The notes below the pieces were generated by a model. That model saw only the letters and a program-made list of their open reading frames with translations. It had not been told where the DNA came from and searched no databases. Made by a program: the position numbers and the translations under genes. From a bacterium (GTDB taxonomy: Bacteria; Bacillota_I; Bacilli_A; RFN20; CAG-826): a stretch of DNA of 64,000 nt. Shown here piece by piece: positions 3,436 to 64,000 of the stretch. Positions within the stretch are counted from its first letter, which is position 1. Each line of letters starts with the position of its first letter. Location of the stretch: NCBI GenBank assembly GCA_963622135.1, contig CAVFGR010000008.1:150218-214217 (forward strand). The letters are read 5' to 3'.

Positions 3436-3438
3436 AAA

Positions 3439-4347: not shown

Positions 4348-4381
4348 AAAAATAGATCGGCTCTGGACCGATCTATTTTTG
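4346..4381. terminator. bidirectional rho-independent terminator between convergent sor and gpmA
   Basis: 10-bp perfect stem AATAGATCGG / CCGATCTATT with a 7-nt loop, flanked by an A-run upstream and a T-run downstream. Confidence 0.7.
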
Positions 4382-4389
4382 AGTTAGGT

Positions 4390-5097: not shown

Positions 5098-5115
5098 ATT
5101 TATATTTCCTTTCGT

Positions 5116-6015: not shown

Positions 6016-6024
6016 ATTTTCTCC

Positions 6025-7044: not shown

Positions 7045-7046
7045 TT

Positions 7047-9943: not shown

Positions 9944-9944
9944 A

Positions 9945-10243
9945 TTATCCGACCACCTTTGGCAACTTAATTTGCCCATCCTTCTTGCTTCCAGCATTCT
10001 TAAGGGCCTCTTCTGGCTCATAAGGGGCTGCTGGCTCATCTTCTCTTAAATATGAGGTGACACATTCCGTGAATGGGAATGTCATTGGCTCATATTCCGC
10101 CAAATCCTTTTGATCGCCGATTGTCTTCATTTGGGCGGTGAGAACAGCAAACTCGTTATAAAGGGTTTGATATTCTTCTTCGCTCAAGTCGAAAAGAAGG
10201 CGATTCGCGGCATCTTTTAAGACTTCAATGGTGATAGTTTTCA

Positions 10244-10244
<1 letters not shown>
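9945..10244 (-). CDS. gatC: Asp-tRNA(Asn)/Glu-tRNA(Gln) amidotransferase subunit C
   Basis: 99-aa GatC-like protein immediately upstream of gatA and overlapping the ligA stop. Confidence 0.9.
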
Positions 10245-14529
<4,285 letters not shown>

Positions 14530-29900: not shown

Positions 29901-30554
29901 TTTGGTGTCGAAGGTGAATCTCGATCCTTTATTTTCATCATTCACTTTTAAGAACTTCTCAGACAAAGATTCCAAAATGTCGTCGATGACCCAATCCAAA
30001 TCGCCGTATTCGTAACGATAGATGCCACCAGTCGTCGAATCAACCGATTCGCCTTCCTCGTTGGTCGTATCGTAAGGGGCGATGTTAACCTTGTATTTGA
30101 AATCATAAGAATCGGTGTCGTTCTTGTTATAGATGGCGAAATACAAGTCTTCATCGGATAAGGTGATCTGCAATCCGCGGAGAAGCCCGTTATAGTCGAT
30201 AGGGATGTTGACATCGAATTCAACTTCATGGAGAGACAATCCATTGACGATGAATTGGCCAGAGGCCTTATATGGATCCTTGATGGACAAAACGTTATTG
30301 AAGTTCTTTCCAAGCAAGCATTCGGCTTCGTCGATGGTGAAGCTAAAACCATCTTGGGCCGTTCCGATAAAAGAAGAAAGGAAACGCTGGAGGTTATCCC
30401 CATCGTTAGAGACATAAGAAGAGCCACCGTTATTTCCGTTATTGTATTCGGTTTTGCTATCTTCAGGTGAGGTCAAAGAGCATGAAGAAAGCAACAAAGA
30501 CGCGACAAGCGTTGCGATAGAGGCGTTCTGTTTTAAGGTTTTTACTTTCTTCAT
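26970..30554 (-). CDS. giant surface lipoprotein (1194 aa), paralog A
   Basis: Lipoprotein signal MKKVKTLKQNASIATLVASLLLSSCS. It is paralogous to the upstream 1207-aa gene, with shared blocks such as YNG..RGL...L.D...YF.I......D.KYKV..A.YD.....GGI..Y.YG.LDW.I.DI. Confidence 0.7.
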   Translation of the reverse strand: MKKVKTLKQNASIATLVASLLLSSCSLTSPEDSKTEYNNGNNGGSSYVSNDGDNLQRFLSSFIGTAQDGFSFTIDEAECLLGKNFNNVLSIKDPYKASGQFIVNGLSLHEVEFDVNIPIDYNGLLRGLQITLSDEDLYFAIYNKNDTDSYDFKYKVNIAPYDTTNEEGESVDSTTGGIYRYEYGDLDWVIDDILESLSEKFLKVNDENKGSRFTFDTKAVLESMENMEKGTLDGNPYFVWNLPIGDKTFNLGLKAEKGSYQWTGIDFPSKVQGGYYEISSDTKIRASVSLDSGNETVNISAPEDASGYTSLVDSMAIWDKVIDYANAQKFSVVTRGSGLLLKHQEEAFEGDGVFFNTTEINEEAYLSLRADIDVTDNNLESIYADVDYSFAGLHQIINMMINGSPTDAFDEVYAAINDLQKAKTSKTVIDSIMGSLKDLMNGGDSSSKKNKSGGGLAALGGALTDAINAVKNSEGLGNVKDGNYEDIMGAITTFKGSTDNVVITLDLSVFGMKGTITLDLIGDSSNVSVGYVKFDNVTVEPFSISGEIDVIPYERTPMTDEEKAQYKELRHLESLSDQFVKISDTKQIKLGLEGYVLTRDTTSVITQTTIGNKTSVPNYQGFSFSGDVGINKNTNQSTGAITVVDRKESYVNDHNVKFDITGKEPKDENGDSTQTDEEVYSSSNPSTQWMLFQYDSKNNGTYPSSENRTAPESDTPLKARFAMHSVSGFVDVFKTLFSSNDPRMERIISLITDLFINSVIGDMITGQYYKVLGSDLITYITLGDRQDVFELPATLIGGESDMKITVNYANDVTREDGRIVGGDIESIELEMAIGVSDIYFKIDVLGYEMQEMNWPNITDISAFVNYSSLKTFAEYAVNMFLAGDRVTTSSGKSVIRSAYKIEGTAEADLPVLSDVVINFKVFVRVEGADIRIAAYVNLPINGVLNSRSLTKSGTRYINFLYHTSGNNDGLFLIDRWDDYGDKGKSQTDNDYHYQTRLDVEGFKSDIMGYITKDIFGLNNTVLNLIDSSSSSSSSQSLHGEDLITGFSFNNDLNNPVWNLDLHTAALLHNSVIGDIKLALGGTYANGKKLFNSAKTREAISIANVINVTFSAEITNFSPDYYYCWDDSIEVPYNINHTTKKVLFVTTDYYETQFHSISNNSFFQDNFLTVNSDGSVTLASSYSSLPLNPTPSNHL

Positions 30555-30608: not shown

Positions 30609-33600
30609 TTAAGCGTAGTAGTTTCCGGCTTTTCCGGCTTCGCTTATCACGTAGTTGCGGTTATAGGTTCCGTCCGCGGAGACGTAACCATAATTGGTCG
30701 GCTCACCATAGACTTCGTTGCCATCGATAACGACACTTGGGCAGAAGTAGGTGAAGAAACCTTCTTGTTCGGTTTCGTTCCAGATGTTCTTATAAGTGCC
30801 ATCGGCAAGGTTGGTGATAGAAAGATCGACAATCGCTTTGGCAATCTTCAATTTGCCAGCGAGGGCGAGATTGACTTCCACGTTCAAGCCAGTCAAGGTC
30901 TTGAAGCTATTGCCAGCCGCATCGGTGACGGTGTCGGCGCCGATCTTTAGGGAAGTGGTTCCTAAGAAGCCAAATCCAAGATTGGCAAGATCAAGGTCGA
31001 CGACATAGCTCTTGGCATCGCTATTTTCATCTTCGACAACTTCAATGCCGGAGAAGACATCCATGACGTGAATGGCTTCTTCGAGCGGCAAGCCATAAGA
31101 CTTCTCGGTAGTGGTCGTGCTTTCCGAGGCGGCTTCTTCATCTTCCGCTAAGAGGGAAGAATCAACGCCGAGGAAGTATTCGAGCAACCATCCGCCGACA
31201 TCCTTGGAGAAGATATCTTCAGACATACGAACGGAGTCTTTGACGTTACGGAGTTTGCCATAAGAGGAATCTCTCGTCATCATGACTTCGTCATTGGTCT
31301 CAAGACCGTCGGCGTAGTAGTAGAAGGAGGCGTCTCTGCTTCCTTCGTATTCATGATCGCGGAAGTATTTCTCGTTCTCTGGAGCATTCAAGCCTTTGAC
31401 GGTCGGAATGTCATTGAGATTGACGGCAGCCTGCAACTGAGCGCCATCGATGGAGAGGGCGCCATCTAAAGTCAACGCATTGAATTGGTAATTGCCCAAA
31501 GCAATATCGACATTGGCTTCCAAACCAAGTGTGGTCTGACCATGTCCGTTCTCTTTGATGGCTCCGACGGTCGTGGTGCTGACGGCGTAGTCAGCGAGAT
31601 CCATGACGGTGTCGTAGTTGCAATAATTATCGGATGAGTGATCTTCCAAAGTTTGGAGGTTAGAGGTTTCGGCTCCTTTATCCAAACCGATGGAGAGGTT
31701 CAGGGATTTGCCGTTGGTATCGAAGTCAGCTCCGACATCGATGGATTTGATCGAATTATCGGCGTTGAAGTTGATGGTAACGGTGATGTCTTGGTCTAAA
31801 CCAAGGGAATCGGCGTTGATGACGATGATGTCTTTGTCCGAGGAAGTGGTGAATGATTTGATGACTCTTAACCCAGCCAAGGAGAAGTATTCGCCAGAGG
31901 TGAGGTCGCCAAGGAGGGCGTTCTCGCCCGGTTTGCTCATCGCACGGGAAATACGGCTGAATCTGTTGTCTAAGCTATTGGAAGCCCAATCCATGATGTT
32001 TTGGACGGTACCCATCGCATAACCGACGGACATCGTGCCTTTGATAGGATCAGAGGTCTTCGGATTGGTGTGGGTTTCGCTCATTCCTTCCGGATTGATG
32101 GAATCATAGGAGAAGAAGACGCGGGTATCGCGCTCGGTAGAAGAGGTGCCGTCTTCGTTTTCGACGGAGACATCTTCCTGAGCGACATCGGCTTTGATGT
32201 TGTGATGCTGGACGAACTTTTCTTCGGTCTCTTTGACATCGATGGCGACGCCAGCCTTCAAATCGTTCTTAACGGAAGCATCCAAAGCGATCTTGCCATC
32301 TAAGTCGATGGCCACTTCGCTTTCGGCCGCGAATTTGAATCCGCCGCCTAAGGTGATGGTCGCAGCCTTAGCGTCGACGATGTCCAAGACTTGGTCGGTG
32401 ACGCCCTTCAAGTGAGACATCTCTTGATAGGCTTCTTTGTTAGTTGGTTCGACAACTTCGCTGTAATCGATGACGTTCAAGGCGCCATCAACGGTAAAGG
32501 AAGCGAACTTGATTTTATTCAATTGAACAGTGAGGAGAGGATCGCCTTCGACTTCAGTGTCCTCGGAAATGGTGACGATAATGTCTTTCCCGTCAGCGGC
32601 GCCGGTTTCGATGCCGATCGGCTTAAGGGAAATGACGATTTCGATCTTATTGTCGTTGACCGTGATGGATTTGATGAAATCCAAGGCGGAATCGTAAACG
32701 CCATTGTCCAAGCCCTTCATGAAGTCACTGTCTTTGACGGCCTGAATGGCGGTCGCGATAGCACCTTCGGTCTTGGTTACCTGCTCTTCGGTCTTTTGCT
32801 CTTCAGAGGCATTTCCGGAATCGGTGACAGGATCACTCTTCATCGCGTCTTTGATGGAGCCGACGACTTCGTCGAGCATGACTTTATCGGTCTTAGCAAG
32901 CAAGGTGTTGTTCAAGTTGATGTACATATCCTTGCTTTCTTCGTTTCCATAGTAAGTGGCGGATAAGTTTTGGCTTGATGTAGTGCCATCGGACTCATGG
33001 GAGAAAGCCAAATTAGCATCCAAGGCATTGAGTTTCTTTCCCGAGGCATCCAAATTGGCGTTAAGGGAGAGATTGGCGGTGTCGTTTAATCCGTCTTTCG
33101 CAAACTTATAGACGGAGGCCTCTTCGCCTTCGGTCTCGTAAGAGAGGTCAAGGTCTAAGCCGACACCGAATTTCATCGAGCCAGCGGCGTGGGCAATCTT
33201 TTCAAACAAAGCGACCGAATTGTCTAGGGATTTGTAATCGGCGGCATTATTTGGCTCGCCGAAGACCAAGCTATTGGTGGCGATATCCAATTGAAGTTTG
33301 AAACCCAAACCATCGACCAAATCGGTGATGGCGTCTTGAGCTGCCACGCCATTTTCTGAATGGATACGTGGGAAATCAACGCCGGTCAAATTGTATTCGG
33401 AGTCAGAACGGAGGCCCAATTCAAAGGTCTTATCGCCCAAAACCAAGTCCCAGTTGAAGTAATGCGGATCGCTGGTTAAGGAGGCTAAGGCGCTATCCTC
33501 GACCATATCATTCATGGAATCCAAGATGGCCTGAGCATCGATTGAACTAGATGATTCTTCAGTGCTAGATTCGCTCGTTTCGCCTTCGGAAGAACCATTA

Positions 33601-34232
33601 ACAAGCCCAGAGATGGAAGGGAAACTGACGTCCATTCCTTCACCAGTGAGAATTCCGATGATATCTTCGATCAACCAGTCTAACTTGCCGTAACTATATT
33701 GGACGATACCGCCGGTTTCCGGGTCGATGACTTGAGGATCTGCGTCATAGGCTGCAGTCGAGACCTTGTATTTCAAATCCCAAGTATCGGAATCGTAGTC
33801 GGCGATGTTGAAGTAAATCATGTCATCGACCAAAGATAATCCCAAACCGCGGTTTTTGCCGTTGTAGTCGACTTTGGCATCGACGACCAGATCAATGCCG
33901 TGGACATCGAGAGACTCCATCTTGAATTTGAGGTTCGTGCCTTTCAAATCGAGATTGTTGGCATAGCCTTCAGATTTGCCATCAAGGACGACCAAGCCAT
34001 CTCTGACGGTCGCGCCCAAGCCAGTTGAGACGGAATCAACGATGTTGCCCATCAATTTTTGGGCACCAGTCAGTTCGATTTGGTCTTTGTCTGGGGCAGG
34101 AATGATCGTTTGATGCTGTGGGATGAGTAAGAACGTCCCGGCGGCAGTCATGCCAAAGATTCCAACAAACATGCCAGACATCAAAAGAATGCGTTTGGCT
34201 TTGCTTTTTGGTTTCTTGCTTTCTTTTTTCAT
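30609..34232 (-). CDS. giant membrane-anchored or secreted surface protein (1207 aa), paralog B
   Basis: N-terminal Lys-rich segment plus a signal-anchor helix (ILLMSGMFVGIFGMTAAGTFLLIP). AGGAG RBS; clear paralogy with 26970-30554. Confidence 0.7.
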   Translation of the reverse strand: MKKESKKPKSKAKRILLMSGMFVGIFGMTAAGTFLLIPQHQTIIPAPDKDQIELTGAQKLMGNIVDSVSTGLGATVRDGLVVLDGKSEGYANNLDLKGTNLKFKMESLDVHGIDLVVDAKVDYNGKNRGLGLSLVDDMIYFNIADYDSDTWDLKYKVSTAAYDADPQVIDPETGGIVQYSYGKLDWLIEDIIGILTGEGMDVSFPSISGLVNGSSEGETSESSTEESSSSIDAQAILDSMNDMVEDSALASLTSDPHYFNWDLVLGDKTFELGLRSDSEYNLTGVDFPRIHSENGVAAQDAITDLVDGLGFKLQLDIATNSLVFGEPNNAADYKSLDNSVALFEKIAHAAGSMKFGVGLDLDLSYETEGEEASVYKFAKDGLNDTANLSLNANLDASGKKLNALDANLAFSHESDGTTSSQNLSATYYGNEESKDMYINLNNTLLAKTDKVMLDEVVGSIKDAMKSDPVTDSGNASEEQKTEEQVTKTEGAIATAIQAVKDSDFMKGLDNGVYDSALDFIKSITVNDNKIEIVISLKPIGIETGAADGKDIIVTISEDTEVEGDPLLTVQLNKIKFASFTVDGALNVIDYSEVVEPTNKEAYQEMSHLKGVTDQVLDIVDAKAATITLGGGFKFAAESEVAIDLDGKIALDASVKNDLKAGVAIDVKETEEKFVQHHNIKADVAQEDVSVENEDGTSSTERDTRVFFSYDSINPEGMSETHTNPKTSDPIKGTMSVGYAMGTVQNIMDWASNSLDNRFSRISRAMSKPGENALLGDLTSGEYFSLAGLRVIKSFTTSSDKDIIVINADSLGLDQDITVTINFNADNSIKSIDVGADFDTNGKSLNLSIGLDKGAETSNLQTLEDHSSDNYCNYDTVMDLADYAVSTTTVGAIKENGHGQTTLGLEANVDIALGNYQFNALTLDGALSIDGAQLQAAVNLNDIPTVKGLNAPENEKYFRDHEYEGSRDASFYYYADGLETNDEVMMTRDSSYGKLRNVKDSVRMSEDIFSKDVGGWLLEYFLGVDSSLLAEDEEAASESTTTTEKSYGLPLEEAIHVMDVFSGIEVVEDENSDAKSYVVDLDLANLGFGFLGTTSLKIGADTVTDAAGNSFKTLTGLNVEVNLALAGKLKIAKAIVDLSITNLADGTYKNIWNETEQEGFFTYFCPSVVIDGNEVYGEPTNYGYVSADGTYNRNYVISEAGKAGNYYA

Positions 34233-52854: not shown

Positions 52855-52893
52855 GGCAAAAGAAAAAGCAACCATTCAAGGTTGCTTTTATTT

Positions 52894-53976
52894 TTAGGCT
52901 GCCGCTTCCCACTTGGCTAACAAAGTTAAATTGCCAGGGATAATCGTTAAGTCGGTGAATTGGCCAGAATTAGGATTGGTTGGATCGGTGAACCAGCCTT
53001 TGAAGACATAGCCGTCATATTCAGGGATTTGAATATTGGACAAAGCCATCGTCTTCCCGACATAACCGGTCGAAATGATGGCGTTCGTGCTAGTGGTTCC
53101 AGCCCAATGCCCGCCATTAGGGTCGAACATGATGCTGCAAGGAACGTCGGTCGTTGTCGTTTCGGCCTTCATGCAGAAGAGAGGTGTCCAAGAACCATTG
53201 TTTTTGACGTAAACCCAGCCGGTCGAGATATTGACATAATAGTCACCATCAATGGCGTTAGGGGCGACGATGTCGTTTGGGGTAGAAGCTCCATACATCC
53301 ACTGGGTGGCGTGCGGTTTAGGGAAAGTCAGATCCTCGCTCGTGCCATCGGAATAAGTGACGGTAAGGCAATATTCGGTCGTGGTCTGTTTCGAATCATC
53401 GATGGTTACGGAGGCGATGCCTAAGCCGTTGGTTAAATCCAATTCGACTGGTTCTAGTCCTTCATCGGTGAAAGAAATGACGATATGATAGCCGGTTGCG
53501 GTTGGGGTGGCCACGATGTTGGAGATGCCATTGCCCCTCGGGATGGTAATAACTTGGGAGACGGTCTCATCAGAATAATTGAACTGAAGGGTGGTATTGC
53601 CGTTTTCGTCATGGTCGACAGTGACGCCGGTGACGGAAACGCCCTCATAATAAGGGATGGTAAATGAGATAGGATCAACACTTTCGTCAGAGAAGGTGAT
53701 CGTGATGGTGTAGCTATGATCATCATTGTCTTTCAAAGTGGCCGAAGTGATGGAAACGCCGTCTTTGCCAGGCAATCCCTGTGGGATGGTAACGGTGAAT
53801 GGATCCTTATCCTCGTCGGTGAAATAGAAAGTGATGACGGTGTCGCCCGTAGCGGCGTCATAGCTAGTCTCGAACGAGCTTAAGGCATATTCGTTGCTGC
53901 CAAAAAACCCGCAGCTGGTCAAACCGCCCGCTAATAAGGCTGAGGATAAAGCCAACAATAAACCTTTCTTTCTCAT
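52894..53976 (-). CDS. lipoprotein with five ~35-aa tandem modules and a C-terminal Listeria-Bacteroides repeat domain; last gene of the 8-gene operon
   Basis: Lipoprotein signal MRKKGLLLALSSALLAGGLTSCG. Repeated modules: TVITFYFTDEDKDPFTVTIPQG, YTITITFSDESVDPISFTIPY, TLQFNYSDETVSQVITIPRG, HIVISFTDEGLEPVELDLTNG and CLTVTYSDGTSEDLTFPKP. C-terminal MFDPNGGHW...PEYDGYVFKGWFTD...LTLLAKW matches the Flg_new/LB repeat. Confidence 0.7.
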   Translation of the reverse strand: MRKKGLLLALSSALLAGGLTSCGFFGSNEYALSSFETSYDAATGDTVITFYFTDEDKDPFTVTIPQGLPGKDGVSITSATLKDNDDHSYTITITFSDESVDPISFTIPYYEGVSVTGVTVDHDENGNTTLQFNYSDETVSQVITIPRGNGISNIVATPTATGYHIVISFTDEGLEPVELDLTNGLGIASVTIDDSKQTTTEYCLTVTYSDGTSEDLTFPKPHATQWMYGASTPNDIVAPNAIDGDYYVNISTGWVYVKNNGSWTPLFCMKAETTTTDVPCSIMFDPNGGHWAGTTSTNAIISTGYVGKTMALSNIQIPEYDGYVFKGWFTDPTNPNSGQFTDLTIIPGNLTLLAKWEAAA

Positions 53977-56459
53977 ATACTTGCTCCTTTCGCATAATTA
54001 TCTTGCAAATCCTTGATGGTCGGGGCTTTCCCGAACAATGAAGGGGTATCGGTTCCAACAACGTCGTTGGTAACAAATTTAAACGGATGGGTGCCCGTGG
54101 CCATGATGACCGCTTTGGCGAAGATTTGGGTGTACCACGCTTCGTTGATGAAGCGATTGCCGATATTCGCCGCCACCAAATCGACGATGACATTAGAAGA
54201 AAAATCATTCTCACCGGTCAGAGAAATAACGCCCCAATCGGAGCCGTTCAATCCACCGCCGTAATAGGCAATCTTCGTATTGGCGTATTGTTTTCCGTCC
54301 CTCTCGTATAAGCATCCCATCTCTTTCAAAGATTCTTTAAGCATGCTCTTGATTGGGAAGAAGTCATCGATGGTGATGTTGATGTCATGCCCCGCCAAAG
54401 AGGAGGCGATACTTGAGATATTTTCGTCAATCAATGAAGAGACATCGATGGAATCAACATCCTTCCAATCATAGAAATTGGTGTTCCCTTCAATCGATAA
54501 ATCAATAGGCCTGGAGGTGCCACCGATCATATTCGGAATGACGGTCCCTCCTAATATGGAAGTGACTAGCTGAATCGGTGTCGGAAGCCCAGAGTAGAGA
54601 TAACCGCCATTGAAGGAAGTCTCAAGGGCGATGGAGAAGATGCCGGAATTATAGAAAGCGGTGTCGTTGACCTTCATTTTGTGTGGGGCGTTGAAATTTA
54701 CCGTATTATCTAATGCGTTTTGGGTATGTCCCAGCAATTGGACCATCTCATCATCGCTATAATCCTTGTAAGACTTGGTCACGTATTTTTGAATCAATTG
54801 CATATAAGTGTTGTCGCTTGAAGCCTCGCGACCGCCAAAAGCATTTCCGATAAAAGCCGAATAAATGGAATTGGCCGTCCCCGAAGCGGATGAAGTATCG
54901 CCAAAGAAATCATTGAATGACTTATTGACCGCCTCGTTATGGACATCATATATGACGCTCTTTTCAGAGTTAGGTTTGGAAACATCATTGGATCCGACTT
55001 TGAGCAAGAATTCGCAGGCGTTTCTCAAGATGCAGTTGTCCAATTCGAAACCATCTGCCTCAAAAGCCCTGACGGCCACCTTGCCATTCTGAATAATGGA
55101 GTTGGTGATTTTGTTTCCTTGGCCATAAACGTCCACAACCGTGCCGACATACGTGAGATTGTACATATCGTCGGTATTGTTGGTGTTGGAGACTAGGACG
55201 TTGTCCAAAGTGATGTTGTTGCCGTCAAGGTAAATGCCTGAGTTATCTTGTCCCAAAGCCTTCACCATGAAGTTTTCTTCCAATGGACCGATGGTGACGA
55301 AAGGAAGAGGACCTTTGAAAAGGTCTTCGTCTCCCGGCATCAGTTTGCCATTCTTGCCAATGGATCCATGGCTTGGATAGGCAAGCTCATGGAAATTGAG
55401 CGTGAACCCATTGCCATAGAAATCCTTTTGGACATGGATGCCAGAGATAATCTCTGGTTTGAAGTCCGTCCCCATTTGCGAATTGTACTGATCAATGAAT
55501 TCATGATTGTAAGTTGTCTCGAAACGATAGACATCGTCCGCGAAACTGAATTCTTTGTTCTTCCAATCGTAATGGCCCATCAAGGAAGTGTTGTCTTTGA
55601 GCTTGGTGTCGTTATATCCACCATGCGCATAAACATACGTGTTTTTCATGGACTCGAGGTTCACTTGGAGGACGGCCTTTTCCCCGTTGGAGGAAAGGTT
55701 GGTCGCCATCAATAAGTCATCATAGGAATAGATGTTATAAGCACCGTCGATGACTTCGAATCGATAAGTCCCACGGATCCATGACTGTTCTTTGGAAGCC
55801 AAGGTGAAATACGAATCACCGGCTCCCTTTATGATAATTTTTCCGTCCTCATAATCGAGGTTGGAAGATTTATCCACCAATTCGACTTCTTGACCGATCT
55901 CCGTCTCGAAATAGACGGTCGAATCAAATTCGATGGTGGCTGGTTGGTTACTATAGGAATCCTTGATCAAGGAATTGTAAACAAAGTCGTACATGCCATA
56001 GGTGCGGTATGTTTTCACCGAATTGCCCGAGATGGCACGTTTGTCGTTGATGGTAATCGTCCCGTTTTCGAAAATGGTCGCGGTGAAATAGCGAGATACC
56101 GTTCCTCTTTCGTTGGAACAGGTGACTTTTACGTCCCCTTCCTCTAAAGCATAAAGGAAATAGGAACCGTTGTTTTTCGTGACCGCGGCTTTTTCAGTCG
56201 AGCTGCCATTTAGTTCGCTGACTGACCAAACCAAATCATTGCCAGGGGCCAAAATCAGGGATTCATCGATGCGTGGAGAGGCCTCAAGAGCGATAGGCAT
56301 CGCCGGATCGGCCTTGAACGCCATAGTGTCCAAATACGCCCAATCGATGCCCAAAATATCGGAAGCCACCGTGTTGTTCAAGGCGACGACGGAGACGAAG
56401 GCAAGGATAGCCACGACAAAGGGGATAACCAACAAAATAGGAAGCGTCTTGTTCTTCAT
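53973..56459 (-). CDS. large secreted/anchored right-handed beta-helix (pectate-lyase-fold) protein (~828 aa)
   Basis: N-terminal signal anchor MKNKTLPILLVIPFVVAILAFVSVVAL. PbH1-like repeats follow (NITLDNVLVSNTNNTDD..., ITNSIIQNGKVAVRAFEADGFELDNCILRNA). Start reset to ATG 56457-56459 with a GGAGG RBS; ATGA overlaps at both ends. Confidence 0.65.
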   Translation of the reverse strand: MKNKTLPILLVIPFVVAILAFVSVVALNNTVASDILGIDWAYLDTMAFKADPAMPIALEASPRIDESLILAPGNDLVWSVSELNGSSTEKAAVTKNNGSYFLYALEEGDVKVTCSNERGTVSRYFTATIFENGTITINDKRAISGNSVKTYRTYGMYDFVYNSLIKDSYSNQPATIEFDSTVYFETEIGQEVELVDKSSNLDYEDGKIIIKGAGDSYFTLASKEQSWIRGTYRFEVIDGAYNIYSYDDLLMATNLSSNGEKAVLQVNLESMKNTYVYAHGGYNDTKLKDNTSLMGHYDWKNKEFSFADDVYRFETTYNHEFIDQYNSQMGTDFKPEIISGIHVQKDFYGNGFTLNFHELAYPSHGSIGKNGKLMPGDEDLFKGPLPFVTIGPLEENFMVKALGQDNSGIYLDGNNITLDNVLVSNTNNTDDMYNLTYVGTVVDVYGQGNKITNSIIQNGKVAVRAFEADGFELDNCILRNACEFLLKVGSNDVSKPNSEKSVIYDVHNEAVNKSFNDFFGDTSSASGTANSIYSAFIGNAFGGREASSDNTYMQLIQKYVTKSYKDYSDDEMVQLLGHTQNALDNTVNFNAPHKMKVNDTAFYNSGIFSIALETSFNGGYLYSGLPTPIQLVTSILGGTVIPNMIGGTSRPIDLSIEGNTNFYDWKDVDSIDVSSLIDENISSIASSLAGHDINITIDDFFPIKSMLKESLKEMGCLYERDGKQYANTKIAYYGGGLNGSDWGVISLTGENDFSSNVIVDLVAANIGNRFINEAWYTQIFAKAVIMATGTHPFKFVTNDVVGTDTPSLFGKAPTIKDLQDNYAKGASI

Positions 56460-58072
56460 AAGCGAGCCTCCATATGATAGAAAGCCTTTTTGCAGCGAGT
56501 CCCGATTCCGACAAAGAACGGGGTAAGGCAAATAAGGACGAACGAAATTTCAATGATATAAGCGTAAATAGGCTTCAATCTCGCGTAGGTGGTGAGCAAG
56601 AAATGCGAAGCCAATAAAAGAATAGGCAAGGTAAGGGGAACGAAATTGTTCCAGACCTTAAGCTTTGATTTGGAATCGGTGTGGTCGTGCATGTCAGCAT
56701 AAAGTCCGAAGACATTATTCCAGACGATCATGATGGTTCCGATGATGAAGGATGCTAAAGCGACCTGCCAGGTGATGGAAGAGAAAGCCAGTAAGGCAAT
56801 CAAGGAAACCACAAAGCTCGCTTCCGAGAAAATAAACGGAATGGCTAGCTTGCAGAATATTTGGGTTTTGACTGGAATCGGTAGGTATTTGACGATTTGT
56901 ACGCATTTCTTTTCGCGGCTGATGGATAAGGAAGCCGAAGCGTTGATAACGCCAGCGAAAAGCAAGATAACGCACAGATTAATGGCTGAGACCAATTCAG
57001 GGAAGTAAGCGGCATAGAACTTAAGATCATCAAAGATGACACCGTTTAAGGAAGAGATGACCGCGTAAGTAAGGAATGGGGCCATGATAAGCAACGAAGT
57101 ATAAGAGAACATATTCATGTCATCCCTGAACAAAAGGTCCATTTCTTTTTTAAGAAGGGCTTTGGCCGGAGAGACCATTTTCATCGGTTTCTTATCGATT
57201 TTGACCTTGGCAAGGCGGATATCGCCAGTGCGCATCATCTTCGTGTAGGCGGCAGACGCCACGGTGATACCGATGAACAAAGATAAAACGGTCATGCCCA
57301 AGAAGATGGCGGCATTCTGGAAGATATTGGTGCTCGTAACAACCATCATACAGACATTTCTGACCGGCAATAAGTATGTCGAGGCGTTATCAATCCAATT
57401 CATGAAACTATCGGAGAAAACTCCACCGATGGAAGAATCGCTTAAAGCCATCAAGAACATGTCTAAGGCGAGTTTATAAACGTAACATAAGGCAATCATC
57501 AAGACGCAAGCGATGACAAATTGGGCAATCGCGCTTCTTTTAACCAATTTATACAATGCTTGGTATCCGACCGAGAGAAGAAGCGACATACCGGTCGTGA
57601 ACAAAGAAACGAAGAATGGGTAAAGAATGGCAAATACGATGAACCTCGCGATAAGGCCATGCGAGATGCCAAAACAAATCAGGATAGGGGTGGCGATGAC
57701 GGCTTCCAAAATGATTTGATTAAGATAAACAAAGATAATCTTTGACGAAATAATATCGGATGACGAAATAGGCAAGCTTAGGAGAATGGTGCTGTCTTTT
57801 TGATTAAAGATGGTCTTTCTCGCGGAAACCATCGAATACAGGATGCTAGCCAGCATTCCAATAAATAAGAAGAAGACCAAGAACGAGAAAGAGCCATGGT
57901 CCGAATAGGCTGTGAGCTTTTTATGAATCGCCAAGGTAAGGAAGCATTCCAAGGCGATGAAAATGGCGGCGAAAAGGAGCCTGAACAAATAAGAAAAGAC
58001 AACCGAAAGAACGGATCTGTTGGACAGATTCATTCTGGTTAAGAATTCCTTTCTTATAAGTTCAATGAGCAT
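56456..58072 (-). CDS. ABC transporter permease, ~12 TM (ABC-2/EcsB-like), no substrate-binding protein partner
   Basis: 538 aa of hydrophobic helices, 6 nt downstream of the ABC ATPase gene. Confidence 0.7.
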   Translation of the reverse strand: MLIELIRKEFLTRMNLSNRSVLSVVFSYLFRLLFAAIFIALECFLTLAIHKKLTAYSDHGSFSFLVFFLFIGMLASILYSMVSARKTIFNQKDSTILLSLPISSSDIISSKIIFVYLNQIILEAVIATPILICFGISHGLIARFIVFAILYPFFVSLFTTGMSLLLSVGYQALYKLVKRSAIAQFVIACVLMIALCYVYKLALDMFLMALSDSSIGGVFSDSFMNWIDNASTYLLPVRNVCMMVVTSTNIFQNAAIFLGMTVLSLFIGITVASAAYTKMMRTGDIRLAKVKIDKKPMKMVSPAKALLKKEMDLLFRDDMNMFSYTSLLIMAPFLTYAVISSLNGVIFDDLKFYAAYFPELVSAINLCVILLFAGVINASASLSISREKKCVQIVKYLPIPVKTQIFCKLAIPFIFSEASFVVSLIALLAFSSITWQVALASFIIGTIMIVWNNVFGLYADMHDHTDSKSKLKVWNNFVPLTLPILLLASHFLLTTYARLKPIYAYIIEISFVLICLTPFFVGIGTRCKKAFYHMEARL

Positions 58073-58078: not shown

Positions 58079-58873
58079 TTATTCTTCTCCGTAAGTGCTA
58101 AAGAAGATGCGGGCTAAATCCCTTCTCTTCATTGGGTTCGCCTTGAAATCGATGAGTTCGCTGACGACGCCGTTATTGATGATGGCGACCCTATCGCAAA
58201 CCTTGGTGACTAAATCGATGTCATGGGAGGTGATAAAGACGGTTTTCCCGTTTCTGGCAAACTCTTGGATCATGTCGATCAAGGTCTGATAAACGATGAT
58301 GTCCAAACCGACTGTCGGTTCGTCCATAATCCAAATCTTTGGGTTATGAACCAAGGACGCCATGAGGCAGATTTTCTGCTTCATGCCGTGGGAATAGCCG
58401 CTGATACGACGATTTAAATCCTCTTCAGGCATCTTGAATTTCTTTTGGATGAAGGCCATGTTCTTATCGAAAGCTTCTTGGAACATGCCGTATGAAGAAC
58501 CGATAAACTCAAGATAGTCTTTGCCAGTCATCATCTCATAGGCCGTAGGCTCAGAAGAGACATAACCGATGCATTTTTTGGCTTCCAATGGCTTAAGTTC
58601 GATGTCGTTGTTGCAGACATAGATTTTGCCGGAAGTCGGTTCTTTAAGGCCAACGATGCAATCGATGGTGGTCGATTTGCCGGCTCCGTTTTTGCCAATA
58701 AAGCCAAAGACTTCGCCTTTATGGACTTCAAGGTTGATGCCCATGAGGACGTCTTTGTCGGCATAGGATTTTTTAAGGTCTTCGATCACTAAGACATTAT
58801 TGGGGTCTTCGGATGGGGAAAGCTCTTTTGGCTCTTCGGTTTCTATGAGCAATTGCTCTTCTTTTTCTGCCAT
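58079..58873 (-). CDS. ABC transporter ATP-binding protein (exporter-type, single NBD)
   Basis: Walker A GKNGAGKST, signature ISGYSHGMKQKICLMASL and Walker B IWIMDEPTVGLD; 264 aa. Confidence 0.9.
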   Translation of the reverse strand: MAEKEEQLLIETEEPKELSPSEDPNNVLVIEDLKKSYADKDVLMGINLEVHKGEVFGFIGKNGAGKSTTIDCIVGLKEPTSGKIYVCNNDIELKPLEAKKCIGYVSSEPTAYEMMTGKDYLEFIGSSYGMFQEAFDKNMAFIQKKFKMPEEDLNRRISGYSHGMKQKICLMASLVHNPKIWIMDEPTVGLDIIVYQTLIDMIQEFARNGKTVFITSHDIDLVTKVCDRVAIINNGVVSELIDFKANPMKRRDLARIFFSTYGEE

Positions 58874-60294
58874 TATTTCTTCCTCCTTCCTATACTGGTC
58901 AACCAGACTAAGTCACGGTTGTATTGCGGGAGAATCGAGTAAGCCGTCCCGCAGATGGCGCAGATGTAATTCTCGCCGGTGAATGATATTTCTTCGCTTC
59001 CGCAGAACGGGCAACGGTCGCGATATAAGCCGATCGATGATTCAAACAACATCATCATCGAGGCTAAGACGTTACGGATGAGAACCGCCCCATCCTTGCG
59101 GTAATAAGAGAGGTTTATGACGTCTGCGAATTGCTTAAGGACGTTCTTGGCGGTTATAAGCAAGACATCGTCATATCCTGGTTTGGAATCGATGATGGCC
59201 TGAATGGTCTTTTGATTCCTTTCGGTGTAGGAATGGCTGACGATGAGATAATAGGTGGCTTTTCTCTTTTCGTTGTTCTTCTTCTTACCACCCATATAGA
59301 AGACTTTGCATTCGATTCCGTTGTTTTCTCTATCCAAACGGAAGATGAATGAGAAGTTGTCTTTTCTGACCCTTAGTGACTGCATGTCGATACGGCCATA
59401 TTCATCGATGAAGATGGAAGGGGAATTGTCCGGTTCCATTAACTCGGTCGTCGCGAAGTATTTGGCAAAGCCCGTGATGACATAGTTGTAATAAAGGGCA
59501 TCGTTCTTGCTATCATCGTTCTTATTGCTGTAATAAGAAACGTGCATCTTGTAGCAATAATTGTATTTAGGGTCGTGGATAAGGATATTGGTCGGGATGA
59601 CCGAACGATTGAATTTCTTATTGGAAGAAAGACGATAGAATTCCGTTCCTTTAAGATTCTTCAATCTCTTTTGAAGCTTTCTCACCAAGAGAAGCAATTC
59701 ATCTCTTTTGTCCGATTCAGATGAAATCATGAATGGAGTGTAGGGAGCCTTAGATTTGGCGAATTCCTTAAACATCGATTTCTGGCCAAAGGTCTTATCC
59801 GTCCTTTCGAAGTGTTCCTGCAAGGATTCCACGAGAGGAGAGATGTCGCTCATGATAAGATCGACGTCTTCGGCCAACTCATCGATGAACATCGAGATGA
59901 ATTGATTCTCATAGGTATTTAAGGTCTCGGTGTTTTGCAAGGTGTGGACGAATTCCGGAGACATCCCTCCATTCTTCCTTTTCCAGAGCTTTGGATCCCT
60001 CATCGTTTCCGAGAAGGATTCATGAGACAAAGCCCCGGATAATTCAGAATGAATGATGACTTCCTCGGTCGCCGCTTTGATATGGGGATTGGAGACTATA
60101 GCCATAATCTTGTCGGTGGCCGAGCGAATTCTTTCCGCATGGACTAGCTGTTCTTCACAGTCGAAGTCGACGCTGAAAGGGAAGGAGGCCTCTTTGAACT
60201 CTTCGGAATAGACTTTTAAGCCATTCCCAAGGACATTCTTCAGGCAATCCGTGAAATCTCCTAAAAACGATTGGGAAACTAATTTCTCTTTCAT
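58873..60294 (-). CDS. McrC-like partner candidate: 473-aa protein with putative PD-(D/E)xK-like motif and C-terminal Cys4 zinc ribbon
   Basis: Sits immediately downstream of the McrB-like gene. Possible nuclease core IFIDEYG...(25 aa)...GIECKVFY. Zn ribbon CPFCGSEEISFTGENYICAICGTAY. The family assignment is by context plus weak motifs, not firm homology. Confidence 0.45.
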   Translation of the reverse strand: MKEKLVSQSFLGDFTDCLKNVLGNGLKVYSEEFKEASFPFSVDFDCEEQLVHAERIRSATDKIMAIVSNPHIKAATEEVIIHSELSGALSHESFSETMRDPKLWKRKNGGMSPEFVHTLQNTETLNTYENQFISMFIDELAEDVDLIMSDISPLVESLQEHFERTDKTFGQKSMFKEFAKSKAPYTPFMISSESDKRDELLLLVRKLQKRLKNLKGTEFYRLSSNKKFNRSVIPTNILIHDPKYNYCYKMHVSYYSNKNDDSKNDALYYNYVITGFAKYFATTELMEPDNSPSIFIDEYGRIDMQSLRVRKDNFSFIFRLDRENNGIECKVFYMGGKKKNNEKRKATYYLIVSHSYTERNQKTIQAIIDSKPGYDDVLLITAKNVLKQFADVINLSYYRKDGAVLIRNVLASMMMLFESSIGLYRDRCPFCGSEEISFTGENYICAICGTAYSILPQYNRDLVWLTSIGRRKK

Positions 60295-60329
60295 GCGTGC
60301 ACGCGTACCTTAAATGTATTGATAAACAC

Positions 60330-62144
60330 TTATAACTTGCGCAATAAGCGGTCTATCATGTGGTTGGTCTGTGGGAATTTGCCTTCCCCATAGGTTTTGA
60401 TGATCAAAGACTTGAGATTCATCAAGCCTGGCTTGATATAGTCTTCGAAACGTCCGTCTAATTTGGCAACGACCTTGCGGGCGAACATGAAATCCAAGGC
60501 ATCTTCCTTGCTTCCGCCGCATTCGACGAAGACCGGAACAAAGTTCTCAATCTGGTTCATGATACGGTTGCCGTAAGTGATATCGAAGGTATCGTAGGCA
60601 AAGTCAGCGATGATACGGAAATTGTTCATATCCTTATTGGACATCTTGTTTTCTTCTTTGCCTTTGGCTTCGGCAAACAAAGCCTGGAGTTTATCAAAGG
60701 ATAAGGTGATCTTAGAGACATCGCCTTCGATCTCGAATGGCTCGTTGCGGTCATCGAAATCGATGGTAATGGCACGGTCATAAACCTTATCGGTGATGGT
60801 ATAGGTGGAATCATCCTTGTTTGCGGTTCCGATGAAATAGGTGTTGGCAGGAATTTTCAAAATACCGTCCTGCAAATGTTCTGGAGCCTCGAAATCATAC
60901 GGGAACTGCATGATTTTGATCTTCCATTCATCGATTGGATATTCCAAAACCGACAAGAAGTCAGCGAAATAGTATTCAATACGCGAGATATTCAATTCAT
61001 CCAAAACCATGAAGTTCAAATTGCTTGGTTTATAGGAATATTCGTATAAGCGTTTTAAGAATTCGGTTTCGTTATAACTTCTGGAGAAGTCGTTGTAATA
61101 GCCAAGGATGGAGGTTTTATCTCTCCAAGTGGCCTGAACGGCTTCAAAGAAGGATTTCTCGGAAACAAATTCAGAGAAATAACGAGCCAAAGAAGATTTA
61201 CCGGTGCCGGATAAACCTTCAAGGATGATGAAACGGGAAGCGGCCAAACCAGCGACGAATTCGCGGATGATGGTCTCGCTATAATAAAGCTTCAATTCTT
61301 TGGCCAAATAGTTTCTGAATTGAGAGCATAAATCTCTTAAGTTGATGTTGTCGTCGAACATTTGCTCTCTATAGCCAATATAGGCATAATCGACCGAGCA
61401 TAAGCCAGGGAAGACTCTTTCTTTGTCGCTTAAGACACCAGCCTCGCCACCGATTCCAGCTCCGGCCACGCCGTTTCCATTGCCGGCGATGCCATTCCCA
61501 TTAGATTCTCCAAAGGATTCGGCCAAAGAACCTTGATCGGCCATCGCGGCCGCGGCTTCTTCGGCTTCCTTCTTTTCTTCTTCGGCGAGTTCGTCGCCGT
61601 GCTTTCCGAAGAACCTCCAAGGTTCATCGATACGCCTGACATTGACCCATAAGAAGGAAATGTTGAGGATCAATAAGGCCAAGAAGACAAAGAAGATGGT
61701 TCCGACCGCTAAGGACTCAGCGAAATACAAATAGCAGAGTCTTACGGCCTCCGGATTCCATGGATGCAACGAAACATAAGAAATACCGCCAAAGAACGCG
61801 GTAGATAAAATAATCGTCGCAATATAGATAAGGACGTATTTGGCCGAGCCACCCTTCTTTTCGTAATACATCGCGGTGCGATATTCGAAGATGAGGGCGC
61901 TGGTGAGGAACATCGCATAAACGAAGAAGATCAATAACAAGGCCCATCTGTGCCATGTTCCTTCAACGATGATGTTAAATCCTAATGCGATGCCTAATTT
62001 CTGGAACGGGTTGTTCTTAGCGAAGATGCCGATGTCACGATCTAAGCCGAGACCGGCAATAATCACGAACGCCGCCCAGAAAAAGACCACGGTGAGAATA
62101 AGCAAATTCTTACGCGTGAAATGAGTTCTCTTTTTCTTGCTCAT
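60330..62144 (-). CDS. membrane-anchored McrB-like AAA+ GTPase (N-terminal 4-TM domain, Gly/Ala-rich linker, C-terminal McrB/AAA_5 module)
   Basis: Residues 1-160 carry four TM helices. The C-terminal module aligns with E. coli McrB: GLSGTGKSSLARYF (Walker A), VQATWRDKTSILGYYNDF (versus VQFHQSYSYEDFIQGY), FMVLDELNISRIEYYFADFLSVLE (versus FIIDEINRANLSKVFGE) and NTYFIGTANKDDST...DKVYDRAI (versus NVYIIGLMNTADRS...DYALRRRF). ATGA overlap with the sipW-like gene. Confidence 0.7.
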   Translation of the reverse strand: MSKKKRTHFTRKNLLILTVVFFWAAFVIIAGLGLDRDIGIFAKNNPFQKLGIALGFNIIVEGTWHRWALLLIFFVYAMFLTSALIFEYRTAMYYEKKGGSAKYVLIYIATIILSTAFFGGISYVSLHPWNPEAVRLCYLYFAESLAVGTIFFVFLALLILNISFLWVNVRRIDEPWRFFGKHGDELAEEEKKEAEEAAAAMADQGSLAESFGESNGNGIAGNGNGVAGAGIGGEAGVLSDKERVFPGLCSVDYAYIGYREQMFDDNINLRDLCSQFRNYLAKELKLYYSETIIREFVAGLAASRFIILEGLSGTGKSSLARYFSEFVSEKSFFEAVQATWRDKTSILGYYNDFSRSYNETEFLKRLYEYSYKPSNLNFMVLDELNISRIEYYFADFLSVLEYPIDEWKIKIMQFPYDFEAPEHLQDGILKIPANTYFIGTANKDDSTYTITDKVYDRAITIDFDDRNEPFEIEGDVSKITLSFDKLQALFAEAKGKEENKMSNKDMNNFRIIADFAYDTFDITYGNRIMNQIENFVPVFVECGGSKEDALDFMFARKVVAKLDGRFEDYIKPGLMNLKSLIIKTYGEGKFPQTNHMIDRLLRKL

Positions 62145-63394
62145 ATAATGTTCTCCGTATCATCAAGATGATCAAAGAAGGAATCATAATCCTTTTCCTT
62201 TTCGATCTTTGGCTTTTTGCGGGCTTTTTTCTCTTTCACCCGTTTTTTCGAAGGAGCCTCCTCCGTATCGGCTTGCTTTTCCGATTTGGTTTCGCCTACT
62301 GAGACCGCTGGAGAGAAAGGCTTAGCAGGTGATTCTTCTTTTTCGAGCGTCTCCGCTTCAGGCAAAGAAGAAGTTGCCTCTGGCTTGGATTCGCTAAGAG
62401 TCTCTTCCTTATTAGAAGGAATCTTCGCGCCTGCCGATTCTTCGGCGATGGCTTTGTTCACATCAATTCCTTCTAATAAGAAGGAGGTGACGAACTTACC
62501 AGATTCGAAGACATGGCAGTTTCCGTTAAAGAAGATGGTTTCTTTATATTGAGTGACGACAGAATTCTTGTCGTCGACTTCCGGATTGAAGTTGAGGGTC
62601 TCCAAGAGGGTTTTTGTCCTCTCATCGACCGCTTTGGAATACTTATTGCTCAGACGATCGTACATCAATAAGCAATAGATGATGCTGACGATGGTAATGA
62701 TGCCAGCGTTGGATTGGACAAAGATGATGAAGATGCCTAGATCTGGCACTTTATGTCCGGTGTAATAACCAATGATGTCATCATAGGTCAGATAGCCTTC
62801 ATAAAGGTTGTTGTCATCATCGATGGAGTTTTTATCGCCGCGGGTATGATAGGCTTTCGTGCCGTCAGACAGAGTTTCGATAACTCTGATACGATGGACG
62901 ACGACCGTTCCCGAGCGGGATTTATAGGCGATAACATCATATAGATTGATGTCATCTTCGGAATCGTATGGGGCTAAACCGATAATATCGTGCGCATTGA
63001 ACTGATTATCCAAATTGTTTTCCACTAAGTAAGTGTTATTGGAGTTTTGCAACGACATTGAGTCGGTCGCGATGACGATGAAGGAAGCTTTGCCGAACAT
63101 CAACACGTTGTTTGAGAAACGACAATACATCGAAAATACGAAAAAGGCGCTAATGGCGCCCATGATCACGTATTCGGTGATTCGAAGGGCCTTTTTTAAC
63201 CCTCTCTTCGTTTTGTTGTTGGCCTCTTTTTGTTGATAGACGGCTTGCTCGATCAAATCAGCGTCTTCACGGCCGATCTTCACGTTTTCGATGTTCGTGT
63301 AATAGTAATTACGGAACAAGATCGTGAAGACGACCGAGAAACTGATTACGCATACGAGGGTTACCACCAAAGAAATGATTTCTACTGATGACAT
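62141..63394 (-). CDS. sipW: SipW-type (S26B, ER/archaeal-type) signal peptidase I with a ~170-aa charged C-terminal cytoplasmic extension
   Basis: N-terminal TM, catalytic-Ser region IVIATDSMSL, VVVHRIRVIE matching the SipW/Sec11 His box, a second TM LGIFIIFVQSNAGIITIVSIIYCLLMY, then a Lys/Glu/Ser-rich tail. 417 aa versus about 190 aa for B. subtilis SipW. Confidence 0.7.
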   Translation of the reverse strand: MSSVEIISLVVTLVCVISFSVVFTILFRNYYYTNIENVKIGREDADLIEQAVYQQKEANNKTKRGLKKALRITEYVIMGAISAFFVFSMYCRFSNNVLMFGKASFIVIATDSMSLQNSNNTYLVENNLDNQFNAHDIIGLAPYDSEDDINLYDVIAYKSRSGTVVVHRIRVIETLSDGTKAYHTRGDKNSIDDDNNLYEGYLTYDDIIGYYTGHKVPDLGIFIIFVQSNAGIITIVSIIYCLLMYDRLSNKYSKAVDERTKTLLETLNFNPEVDDKNSVVTQYKETIFFNGNCHVFESGKFVTSFLLEGIDVNKAIAEESAGAKIPSNKEETLSESKPEATSSLPEAETLEKEESPAKPFSPAVSVGETKSEKQADTEEAPSKKRVKEKKARKKPKIEKEKDYDSFFDHLDDTENII

Positions 63395-63444: not shown

Positions 63445-64000
63445 TTATTTAGAAGTGACTTCAATTAAGAAACTGACGTTCTTATCCGTTGCGGCTGCAA
63501 CTGCGTTATTCATCGCATTGATGCCTTCGATCGCGGCATTGACCGCAGTCTGATCAGCATCGTTGTTGGCTGGGTTATCATTGCCGAAAGTCGATCCCCA
63601 CATCCAGTTGACCGTGATTGTGACGGTCACAGAAGTATTTGAGGAATCGATGGCGCTGATATTCCAATCGTAGCCGTTTGATAAGGTGCCGGATTTGGTC
63701 GTTCCGCTCTTTTCAGTGGAATAATCAGTTCCGGTGCTGGTATAGAGAGTAACCTTATTTCCCGAATTAGCCGAAGGGTTAGTGATGTAGTTGCTGGTGG
63801 CAAGATCAGTAAGAACCTGCGGATAAGTCGGAGTGATGGTTAATTCATTTAACCTTGTGTTTAAATTCGCGCTTGTGAGCGTGAATTGGAATTGAACGCT
63901 AAGATGTTCGACATCGTTGATTTCTCCGTCTCCGGTAAATCCAGCTTGAATCAAGCCAGTATTATCGGAGGATTCTGGACCAAATACCACATAAGCGGTT
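63445..64000 (-). CDS. secreted Thr/Ser/Asn-rich protein, C-terminal part (gene continues beyond the window end); candidate SipW substrate
   Basis: The ORF stays open to the window edge, and the composition suggests a beta-rich extracellular protein (...SVTVTITVNWMWGSTFGNDNP...). It lies directly upstream of the sipW-like gene, like tapA/tasA in the Bacillus tapA-sipW-tasA arrangement. The N-terminus is not visible. Confidence 0.45.
   Translation of the reverse strand, partial: TAYVVFGPESSDNTGLIQAGFTGDGEINDVEHLSVQFQFTLTSANLNTRLNELTITPTYPQVLTDLATSNYITNPSANSGNKVTLYTSTGTDYSTEKSGTTKSGTLSNGYDWNISAIDSSNTSVTVTITVNWMWGSTFGNDNPANNDADQTAVNAAIEGINAMNNAVAAATDKNVSFLIEVTSK

Follow-up and report, generated by a model that had tools for sequence, protein, structure and literature searches.

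Does a protein encoded in the position of McrC, directly after a McrB-like GTPase, still act as a nuclease when its catalytic motif is weak and its C-terminus carries a zinc ribbon, and if it does not, what might the pair do instead? McrBC is a textbook GTP-driven restriction motor. The question is raised by a minus-strand open reading frame (ORF), 58873-60294, in a stretch of 64,000 nucleotides (nt) from the bacterial contig CAVFGR010000008.1 (assembly GCA_963622135.1), the whole of which is called the window here. A first-pass annotation of the window had suggested that the encoded protein of 473 amino acids (aa) and the adjoining GTPase could be a non-nucleolytic derivative of McrBC. The present analysis supports that suggestion: judged from its sequence, the 473-aa protein is probably a catalytically dead McrC homologue. 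Three features lay beyond the view of the annotation, namely that the partner GTPase is anchored in the membrane, that it belongs to the NxD branch and that the pair sits within a larger conserved operon for secreted or surface proteins. A tentative reading of this context is that, in a lineage of uncultured gut Bacilli, the McrBC motor has been exapted as the GTP-driven engine or gate of a machine for surface-filament export or assembly that includes a SipW peptidase and an ATP-binding cassette (ABC) exporter.

The McrC-like protein and its nuclease-like domain

The McrC-like ORF is a real gene, since a word-seeded search of 5.8 billion clusters returned 16 further homologue clusters (17 in all, one being the window's own protein) and an exhaustive hidden Markov model (HMM) search across 1.84 billion representatives yielded 399 relatives at E <= 1e-3, with 182 at E <= 1e-30. 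The majority of the relatives from the HMM search align end to end, ribbon included. A second homologue search, run with a 70-sequence alignment, filled up with close relatives, P0147 being the one addition. The Pfam family DUF2357 (PF09823), against which the family assignment was checked, matches residues 63-145 with 27.9 bits, above the cut-off of 23.3 bits; a precomputed PF09823 match exists in 16 of 17 close clusters, and, of 70 diverse relatives, 38 match DUF2357 (best E = 1e-9). The gene follows the GTPase gene on the same strand after a gap of 35 nt in which no convincing terminator was found, and its stop codon overlaps the ATG of the next gene (TAATG). A McrB-like GTPase gene lies directly upstream at all loci, including those of the distant relatives L027 and L031. 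Both the short gap and the DUF2357 match bear out the McrC-position assignment, and the coupling to the GTPase, that the first-pass annotation had made. Elsewhere the protein left few traces: PADLOC and NCBIfam gave nothing beyond weak ribbon matches, a profile built from the family alignment found only weak zinc-ribbon matches in the PDB (E >= 0.59) and no McrC, and a Foldseek search of the model against the PDB returned nothing at E <= 1e-3. The database representative P0001 differs from the window translation by a single residue (F295S, nt 59410-59412), and the contig of P0001 also encodes an exact copy of the window McrC-like protein.

Conservation was measured in an alignment of 157 full-length relatives. 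The DUF2357 core holds most of the near-invariant positions (P70, D100, W104, P113-E114, D/E123, Y128-E129-N130, F132, Y220, T235-N236, L238 and Y244), and its Y-E-N-x-F core is invariant. Position 105 is basic (K/R) in 95 % of the relatives and R99 is K or R in 71 %. The 473-aa ORF also ends in the Cys4 zinc ribbon that had been described (the C-terminal end reads ...CPFCGSEEISFTGENYICAICGTAY...), and its cysteines are kept throughout the family, C428 and C431 in 157 of 157 relatives and C445 and C448 in 156. Mean column conservation is 0.51 both for residues 61-135 and for residues 216-255, 0.40 for the zinc ribbon and 0.25 for residues 291-420, the lowest in the protein. In the AlphaFold2 (AF2) model, the N-terminus is helical, with long helices at 122-151, 195-215 and 261-282 and no extended coiled coil. 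The most conserved stretch, residues 72-125, is modeled with low confidence, as would be expected for a segment that becomes ordered only on partner binding. The ribbon weakly resembles TFIIB, Rrn7 and A2L-type ribbons.

The poorly conserved residues 291-420 coincide with the domain on which the nuclease question turns. A check of the structure found a restriction endonuclease (REase)-like, or PD-(D/E)xK, fold in the C-terminal domain. The candidate D...ExK core named there, FIDEYG (D297) and GIECK (E328, K330), does occur in the window protein, but it is not a feature of the family: D297, E328 and K330 are kept together in only 7 of the 157 relatives. The alternative combination D321/E328/K330 is kept in 8 of them. 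Across residues 285-425 no column exceeds 51 % acidic or 46 % basic residues. The motif is lost in every operon-sharing orthologue at 34-39 % identity, and a relative at 65 % identity (P0007) already has Ile at position 328 (E328I). Neither the window protein nor any of 70 diverse relatives matched a nuclease family in Pfam, and the nuclease-like domain showed no conserved basic residues on its surface. At the level of the alignment, this demonstrates that the nuclease-like domain has lost any conserved D...(D/E)xK site. The homologues thus hold no conserved acidic triad, which counts against an active site and therefore supports the non-nucleolytic reading.

One subgroup of 22 relatives (470-1,095 aa; including P0083, P0064, P0080, P0073 and P0086) is marked by C-terminal extensions. 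In the five members inspected, the zinc ribbon is followed by two to three repeats of an unrecognised domain of ~140 aa (consensus ...YY.ELKNYILSYKKV.SR.SW.YDSF..GR...VKLA.KGKTL..F.ALD...KY...DMG..KKFE.TPMM.KVKS.RG.KYAKELID...), the copies being separated by acidic linkers rich in Pro, Glu and Val. When ten long relatives were scanned, eight of which belong to this subgroup, the only Pfam match in the extensions was a weak, sub-threshold Bacillus_HBL match in P0086.

The membrane-anchored GTPase and the conserved operon

The four transmembrane (TM) helices of the partner GTPase (residues 14-32, 68-86, 101-119 and 147-165) follow a basic N-terminus, and the AAA+ GTPase domain spans residues ~240-604, with Walker A GLSGTGKSS, Walker B LDELN and an N-K-D (NxD) signature. 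Because the N-terminus is basic and the number of TM helices even, the GTPase domain is predicted to be cytoplasmic. The sole PDB match by sequence is E. coli McrB (6hz4_A, E = 5.5e-4), and the alignment spans Walker A, Walker B and the stretch TANKDDS, the equivalent of MNTADRS. Among 22 orthologues, at least 95 % keep the N, K and D of G-T-A-N-K-D-[DE]-S-T; the residue after the D varies. Replacement of NxxD by NxD, usually followed by D or E, defines the CoCoNuT/CoCoPALM branch of McrB-like GTPases (Bell et al., 2024; PMC11090510), to which the sequence motif assigns the partner GTPase. The FtsB/DivIC families gave no match, even with E allowed up to 1. The GTPase domain is matched at E <= 1e-5 by no fewer than 6,535 clusters, of which the best 120 all have a length of ~600-620 aa and an identity of at least 68 %. 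As the McrC-like protein shares 30-89 % identity across loci, the GTPase, at 68 % or more among its 120 best matches, is by far the better conserved of the two.

A metagenome scan with an alignment of the long-form subgroup separated four classes of locus (A, A', B and C). Class A, to which the window corresponds, comprises L001-L026, L028-L030 and L032-L036, all from metagenomes or metagenome-assembled genomes (MAGs) of uncultured gut 'Bacilli', 'Bacillales' or 'Candidatus Enteromonas'. In the scan loci of this class the GTPase has four to five TM helices and is 71-73 % identical to that of the window, and the McrC-like protein (459-465 aa) carries the nuclease-like domain and the ribbon. The operon begins with two to six small proteins of ~240-300 aa, followed by the SipW-like peptidase, the four-TM GTPase and the McrC-like protein, and then by an ABC ATPase, a permease with ~12 TM helices, a single-TM protein of ~810-870 aa and a Flg_new lipoprotein. 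Among the retrieved class A loci, all that reach far enough show this order unchanged, even where the McrC-like protein is only 30 % identical. The genes overlap or abut (ATGA, TAATG), and a strong terminator is found only after the last of them, the Flg_new gene. The guanine-plus-cytosine (GC) fraction of the cluster is 0.451 against 0.447 in the rest of the window, and the flanking genes encode an Opp transporter, PcrA/UvrD and LigA. With matching GC and housekeeping neighbors, the locus is part of the native chromosome and not an island. No nuclease, HEPN or other effector gene was found in the cluster. Four of the MAGs that carry this Bacilli-type cluster are labeled Alistipes shahii, Alistipes onderdonkii, Bacteroides uniformis and Sodaliphilus sp. 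(L011, L014, L017 and L020, respectively), which suggests mislabeled or contaminated bins.

The peptidase matches SipW-type, or archaeal-type, signal peptidase I at E about 4e-13 and scores 49.3 bits against TIGR02228, just under the cut-off of 51.85 bits; its motifs SM, HR and GD.N..D are conserved in 27 orthologues. After its second TM helix, residues ~300-417 form a low-complexity tail rich in Ser, Glu and Lys that is not conserved among orthologues. The small secreted paralogues upstream share a basic and then hydrophobic N-terminus leading into G-F-[AS]-[TS]-W-V, and a C-terminal F-x-W-G-x-x-F motif. They occur as two to six tandem copies per cluster (for example, L026:267-1902, L028:4311-8982 and L030:3555-8772) and are likely the substrates of the adjacent peptidase. 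No family in Pfam, NCBIfam or the PDB was matched by them, and no sequence match to any TasA/camelysin model or structure supports a kinship with TasA or camelysin. Similarly, the ~830-aa protein and the permease matched no informative family in Pfam, NCBIfam or the PDB. The true start of the ~830-aa protein is probably near 56459, giving the 828 aa called on the source contig.

Table 1. Positions of the operon genes, protein domains and DNA features in the window
Feature	Coordinates	Strand	Remarks
Bidirectional intrinsic-terminator-like hairpin	52864..52889		10-bp stem; closes the operon
Flg_new (Listeria-Bacteroides repeat) lipoprotein	52894..53976	-	360 aa; last gene of the string
~830-850-aa protein	53973..56531	-	One N-terminal TM helix; conserved in the cluster
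ABC-exporter-type permease	56456..58072	-	538 aa; roughly 12 TM helices; families 12TM_1 / ABC_tran_2
ABC transporter ATPase	58079..58873	-	264 aa; start codon overlaps the McrC-like stop
McrC-like gene	58873..60294	-	473 aa; DUF2357 domain, degenerate REase-like domain and Cys4 zinc ribbon
Zinc ribbon, CPxCG-x13-CxxC	58894..59019	-	Residues 426-467; invariant or near-invariant Cys4
Beta-rich PD-(D/E)xK-like fold	59035..59424	-	Residues 291-420; without conserved catalytic residues
DUF2357 (McrC finger-domain) core	59530..60114	-	Residues 61-255; conserved
Palindrome GCGTGCACGC	60295..60304		10 bp; directly abuts the ATG
McrB-like GTPase	60330..62144	-	604 aa; four N-terminal TM helices, acidic and Gly-rich linker, AAA+ domain
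SipW-type (S26) signal peptidase I	62141..63394	-	417 aa; end overlaps the GTPase start by 4 nt
Secreted paralogue	63445..64000	-	~271 aa; 3' part, runs off the window end

The palindrome between the GTPase and McrC-like genes, which the first-pass annotation had singled out, exists, one base away from the position given there, but it has no significance. Perfect 10-bp palindromes number 61 in the window, fewer than the 73.6 expected from Markov-1 simulations, and those with at least eight G or C number 7, with 6.9 expected. In the orthologous loci L006 and L007, whose McrC-like proteins are 88-89 % identical, GCGTGCACGC is absent and only an AAGG Shine-Dalgarno-like element is kept. A role as a terminator, operator or restriction-site signal was rejected given this chance frequency, the lack of conservation and a possible hairpin of at most a 3-bp stem and a 4-nt loop. 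The palindrome is a chance feature outside the system, and no conserved DNA element adjoining the McrC-like gene was found. Elsewhere in the window, two ORFs of ~1,200 aa each (26970-30554 and 30609-34232) and two of ~570 aa each (38186-39937 and 40110-41816) have no Pfam match at E <= 1e-5.

The other classes place related pairs in other settings. In class A' (L027 and L031), the GTPase has four TM helices and 47-52 % identity to that of the window, and the McrC homologue has the nuclease-like domain and the zinc ribbon. At L027 (1132-1740) the pair is preceded by a Bac_transf sugar-transferase gene rather than by SipW, which hints at a link to another surface-polymer pathway. Class B has a soluble GTPase of ~745 aa with a long coiled coil (45 % identity), a DUF2357 and zinc-ribbon protein of ~600 aa, and a MkoA/Upf1-like helicase upstream, and is CoCoNuT type II-like. 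The class B loci L037, L038, L040, L041, L043 and L044 (about 2,900-11,700 each) are four-gene clusters for a MkoA/Upf1-like SF1 helicase of ~1,070 aa, a protein of ~495 aa, the GTPase and the DUF2357-ribbon protein. In class C (L047 and L050-L056), the GTPase (505-565 aa, 39-42 % identity) has a single TM helix and a coiled coil with a heptad-like segment, and the McrC homologue (400-490 aa) has DUF2357 and a basic coiled tail, without the nuclease-like domain or the ribbon. Its neighbors are a Peptidase_S24/S26 gene, several proteins with one TM helix and [GSA]-T-[YF]-A-W-[FY] N-termini, and a surface protein of 1,000-2,100 aa; class C matches the published description of CoCoPALM. The motif N-x-D-[DE]-S-T is common to the GTPases of all four classes and in the same register.

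Proposed function and competing explanations

The genomic context suggests that the pair drives or gates surface-protein biogenesis and not restriction. The strongest argument for a functional link to secretion is that classes A and C are both wired to a signal peptidase and to arrays of proteins with related signal-like N-termini. In solved McrBC assemblies, the McrC finger domain lies in the pore of the GTPase hexamer, where a conserved basic residue stimulates GTP hydrolysis, and the nuclease domains play a bridging, dimerising role in the tetradecamer (PMC7680126). By analogy, the conserved 70-130 segment of the McrC-like protein would insert into the pore of a GTPase hexamer and stimulate hydrolysis through a basic residue, for which R99 and K/R105, both in the conserved stretch that the model shows with low confidence, are candidates. 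The dead nuclease domain and the ribbon could form a module for dimerisation, bridging or docking that cuts no nucleic acid. The pair would then act at the cytoplasmic face as a motor or checkpoint for the export, processing or assembly of SipW-processed surface subunits, working together with the ABC exporter, and the product might be a fibre or a pilus-like structure. In the tentative reading given at the outset, the four-TM GTPase hexamer would be the membrane platform, and the nuclease-dead zinc-ribbon McrC its rotary activator and dimeriser.

Several observations weigh against this proposal. A characterised family could be found neither for the small proteins nor for the ~830-aa protein or the permease, and it is the context and the N-terminal motifs that point to a fibre or pilus as the product. 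The AF2 model does not show the beta-stalk of solved McrC structures, in a region modeled with low confidence. At the class A' loci the TM-GTPase and zinc-ribbon McrC pair occurs without a SipW gene immediately upstream, and the pair may thus work in other contexts. Finally, the window protein has D321, E328 and K330, as do eight of the nine relatives at 49 % identity or more, which leaves a small chance of residual activity in this subclade.

Three competing explanations were considered, and all were ranked as less likely than a nuclease-dead pair acting in the export, processing or assembly of surface proteins. The same D321/E328/K330 residues, or D297 in place of D321, together with the REase-like fold, are the grounds for supposing that the nuclease is still active in the window's lineage, as a membrane-tethered but otherwise conventional enzyme of the McrBC type. 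This is very improbable. Every relative at 34-39 % identity with this operon has lost the triad, as has about 95 % of the wider family; the Ile at 328 in P0007 breaks it at 65 % identity. In the model, D321 appears to end one strand and E328 to begin the next across a tight hairpin, which would be a non-canonical geometry. Moreover, the nuclease-like domain is the fastest-evolving part of the protein, and in the GTPase a membrane domain takes the place that the DNA-binding domain has in canonical McrB. A second alternative, an anti-phage defence module, would be a derivative of type IV restriction or abortive infection in which an unseen effector, or else the membrane part of the GTPase, stands in for the lost nuclease. 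Its position by the secretion genes would be incidental, or the pair would guard a surface structure used as a phage receptor. The GTPase core does match the PADLOC candidate PDC-M26A (E = 1.2e-37), the nearest non-membrane relatives (class B, 45 % identity) adjoin a MkoA/Upf1-like helicase as in CoCoNuT defence-like systems, and CoCoNuT CnuC proteins are described with inactivated nuclease domains and zinc ribbons. However, the match is limited to the core, and since the GTPases of classes A, A', B and C all match about equally (1e-37 to 1e-42), it is generic to the NxD GTPase domain. The McrC-like protein matches no PADLOC model, PDC-M26 as a system was not found at the locus, and a literature search on PDC-M26 returned nothing further. 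Defence genes are typically patchy and lie in variable islands. Here, gene order is fixed and translationally coupled across all retrieved class A loci of sufficient extent, the GTPase is strongly conserved, GC is native, the neighbors are housekeeping genes and the cluster has no effector gene, so that a defence role is considered unlikely.

The zinc ribbon itself could be read in another way, as the nucleic-acid-binding part of a regulator that couples the state of the GTPase or of secretion to transcription or translation of the operon, with no mechanical role in export. Outside the DUF2357 core, nothing in the protein is conserved as strictly as the Cys4 ribbon, and the resemblance of the ribbon to TFIIB, Rrn7 and A2L-type ribbons, though weak, points in the same direction. 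Zinc ribbons are, however, equally common as protein-protein modules. Bell et al. (2024) suggest that the dead PD-(D/E)xK domains and ribbons of CnuC may retain affinity for nucleic acid, but the nuclease-like domain here has no conserved basic surface residues and no conserved DNA element was found beside the gene. In addition, the CoCoPALM-type McrC homologues occur in analogous operons without the ribbon or the nuclease-like domain, so neither is needed for the shared context. A regulator of this kind is accordingly rated improbable.

If the exaptation reading holds, the locus would encode a filament or secretion apparatus of a new kind, driven by an AAA+ GTPase. Strictly syntenic throughout its lineage, this version of McrBC has lost its nuclease residues and gained a membrane anchor, and it lies among genes for a dedicated signal peptidase, the likely substrates of that peptidase and an ABC exporter. 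Together these features point to a defence motor repurposed for cell-surface biogenesis. The idea of a secretion-linked McrBC was raised earlier, in the single paragraph on CoCoPALM, and the window locus is a compact and well-defined variant of it, with clear residues for mutation (the N-K-D loop, R99, K105 and the Cys4). It also provides a first handle on the surface structures of the uncultured, RF39-like gut bacteria. As PDC-M26A fires on classes A, A', B and C, loci of this sort risk being annotated as defence systems.

Comparison with known systems

The canonical McrBC systems of E. coli K-12 and T. gammatolerans (PMC7680126; PMC6624300) share with the window locus an AAA+ GTPase gene followed by a McrC-family partner, Walker A and Walker B motifs, an N..D loop in place of sensor I, a DUF2357 or finger domain and a REase-like C-terminal fold. 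The window GTPase differs in having NxD where the canonical proteins have NxxD, and a membrane domain in place of the DNA-reading domain of McrB. Its partner lacks a conserved D...(D/E)xK, has an added zinc ribbon, and is encoded in a housekeeping-like operon rather than in a restriction island.

In the tapA-sipW-tasA biofilm-fibre operon of Bacillus subtilis, a SipW-type (ER/archaeal-type S26) peptidase is encoded beside its presumptive dedicated substrates. The window operon is similar in that its SipW-type peptidase lies beside paralogous secreted proteins, with a signal-peptide end that contains G and aromatic residues. The B. subtilis operon is not known to contain a GTPase, a McrC-like protein or an ABC exporter.

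The type II CoCoNuT proteins CnuB and CnuC are closer in domain content, with an NxD GTPase and a McrC homologue that has DUF2357, an inactivated PD-(D/E)xK domain and a ribbon. CnuC is described as having a zinc ribbon with two Cys pairs after its inactivated nuclease domain (Bell et al., 2024; PMC11090510), and the window GTPase domain is 45 % identical to that of the CoCoNuT-like class B. Unlike type II CoCoNuT, the window GTPase has no long coiled coil, and its McrC-like partner has a helical N-terminus and no Ig-like beta-sandwich. No CnuH helicase, CnuE or HEPN genes are present at class A loci, where the GTPase carries a membrane domain and the context is a secretion operon.

CoCoPALM is described in one paragraph of Bell et al. 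(2024; eLife, PMC11090510), with details deferred to a forthcoming paper. That paragraph links NxD McrBC-like modules, without experiment, to signal peptidases and pilus assembly, and a search of the literature for follow-up work and of the supplements of the paper yielded nothing further. In both systems, an NxD GTPase with a membrane-anchoring N-terminus is paired with a DUF2357 homologue without an active nuclease, and both are accompanied by a gene of the signal-peptidase family and by arrays of secreted proteins that have an aromatic-rich, signal-like N-terminus in common. Despite this likeness, the GTPase domains are 39-42 % identical, and the window GTPase has a four-TM domain instead of an FtsB-like single TM helix and coiled coil. 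The window McrC homologue keeps a degenerate nuclease fold and a Cys4 ribbon, whereas that of the CoCoPALM-type class C ends in a basic coiled tail. The peptidase of the window is larger (SipW-like, 417 aa) and lies upstream, compared with an S24/S26 protein of ~180-280 aa just downstream in CoCoPALM, and here an ABC exporter is inserted after the pair. Ultimately, the architecture of the window locus combines the type II CnuC traits of a dead nuclease and a ribbon with a CoCoPALM-like context, and the four-TM domain and the ABC exporter are additions relative to both CoCoNuT and CoCoPALM.

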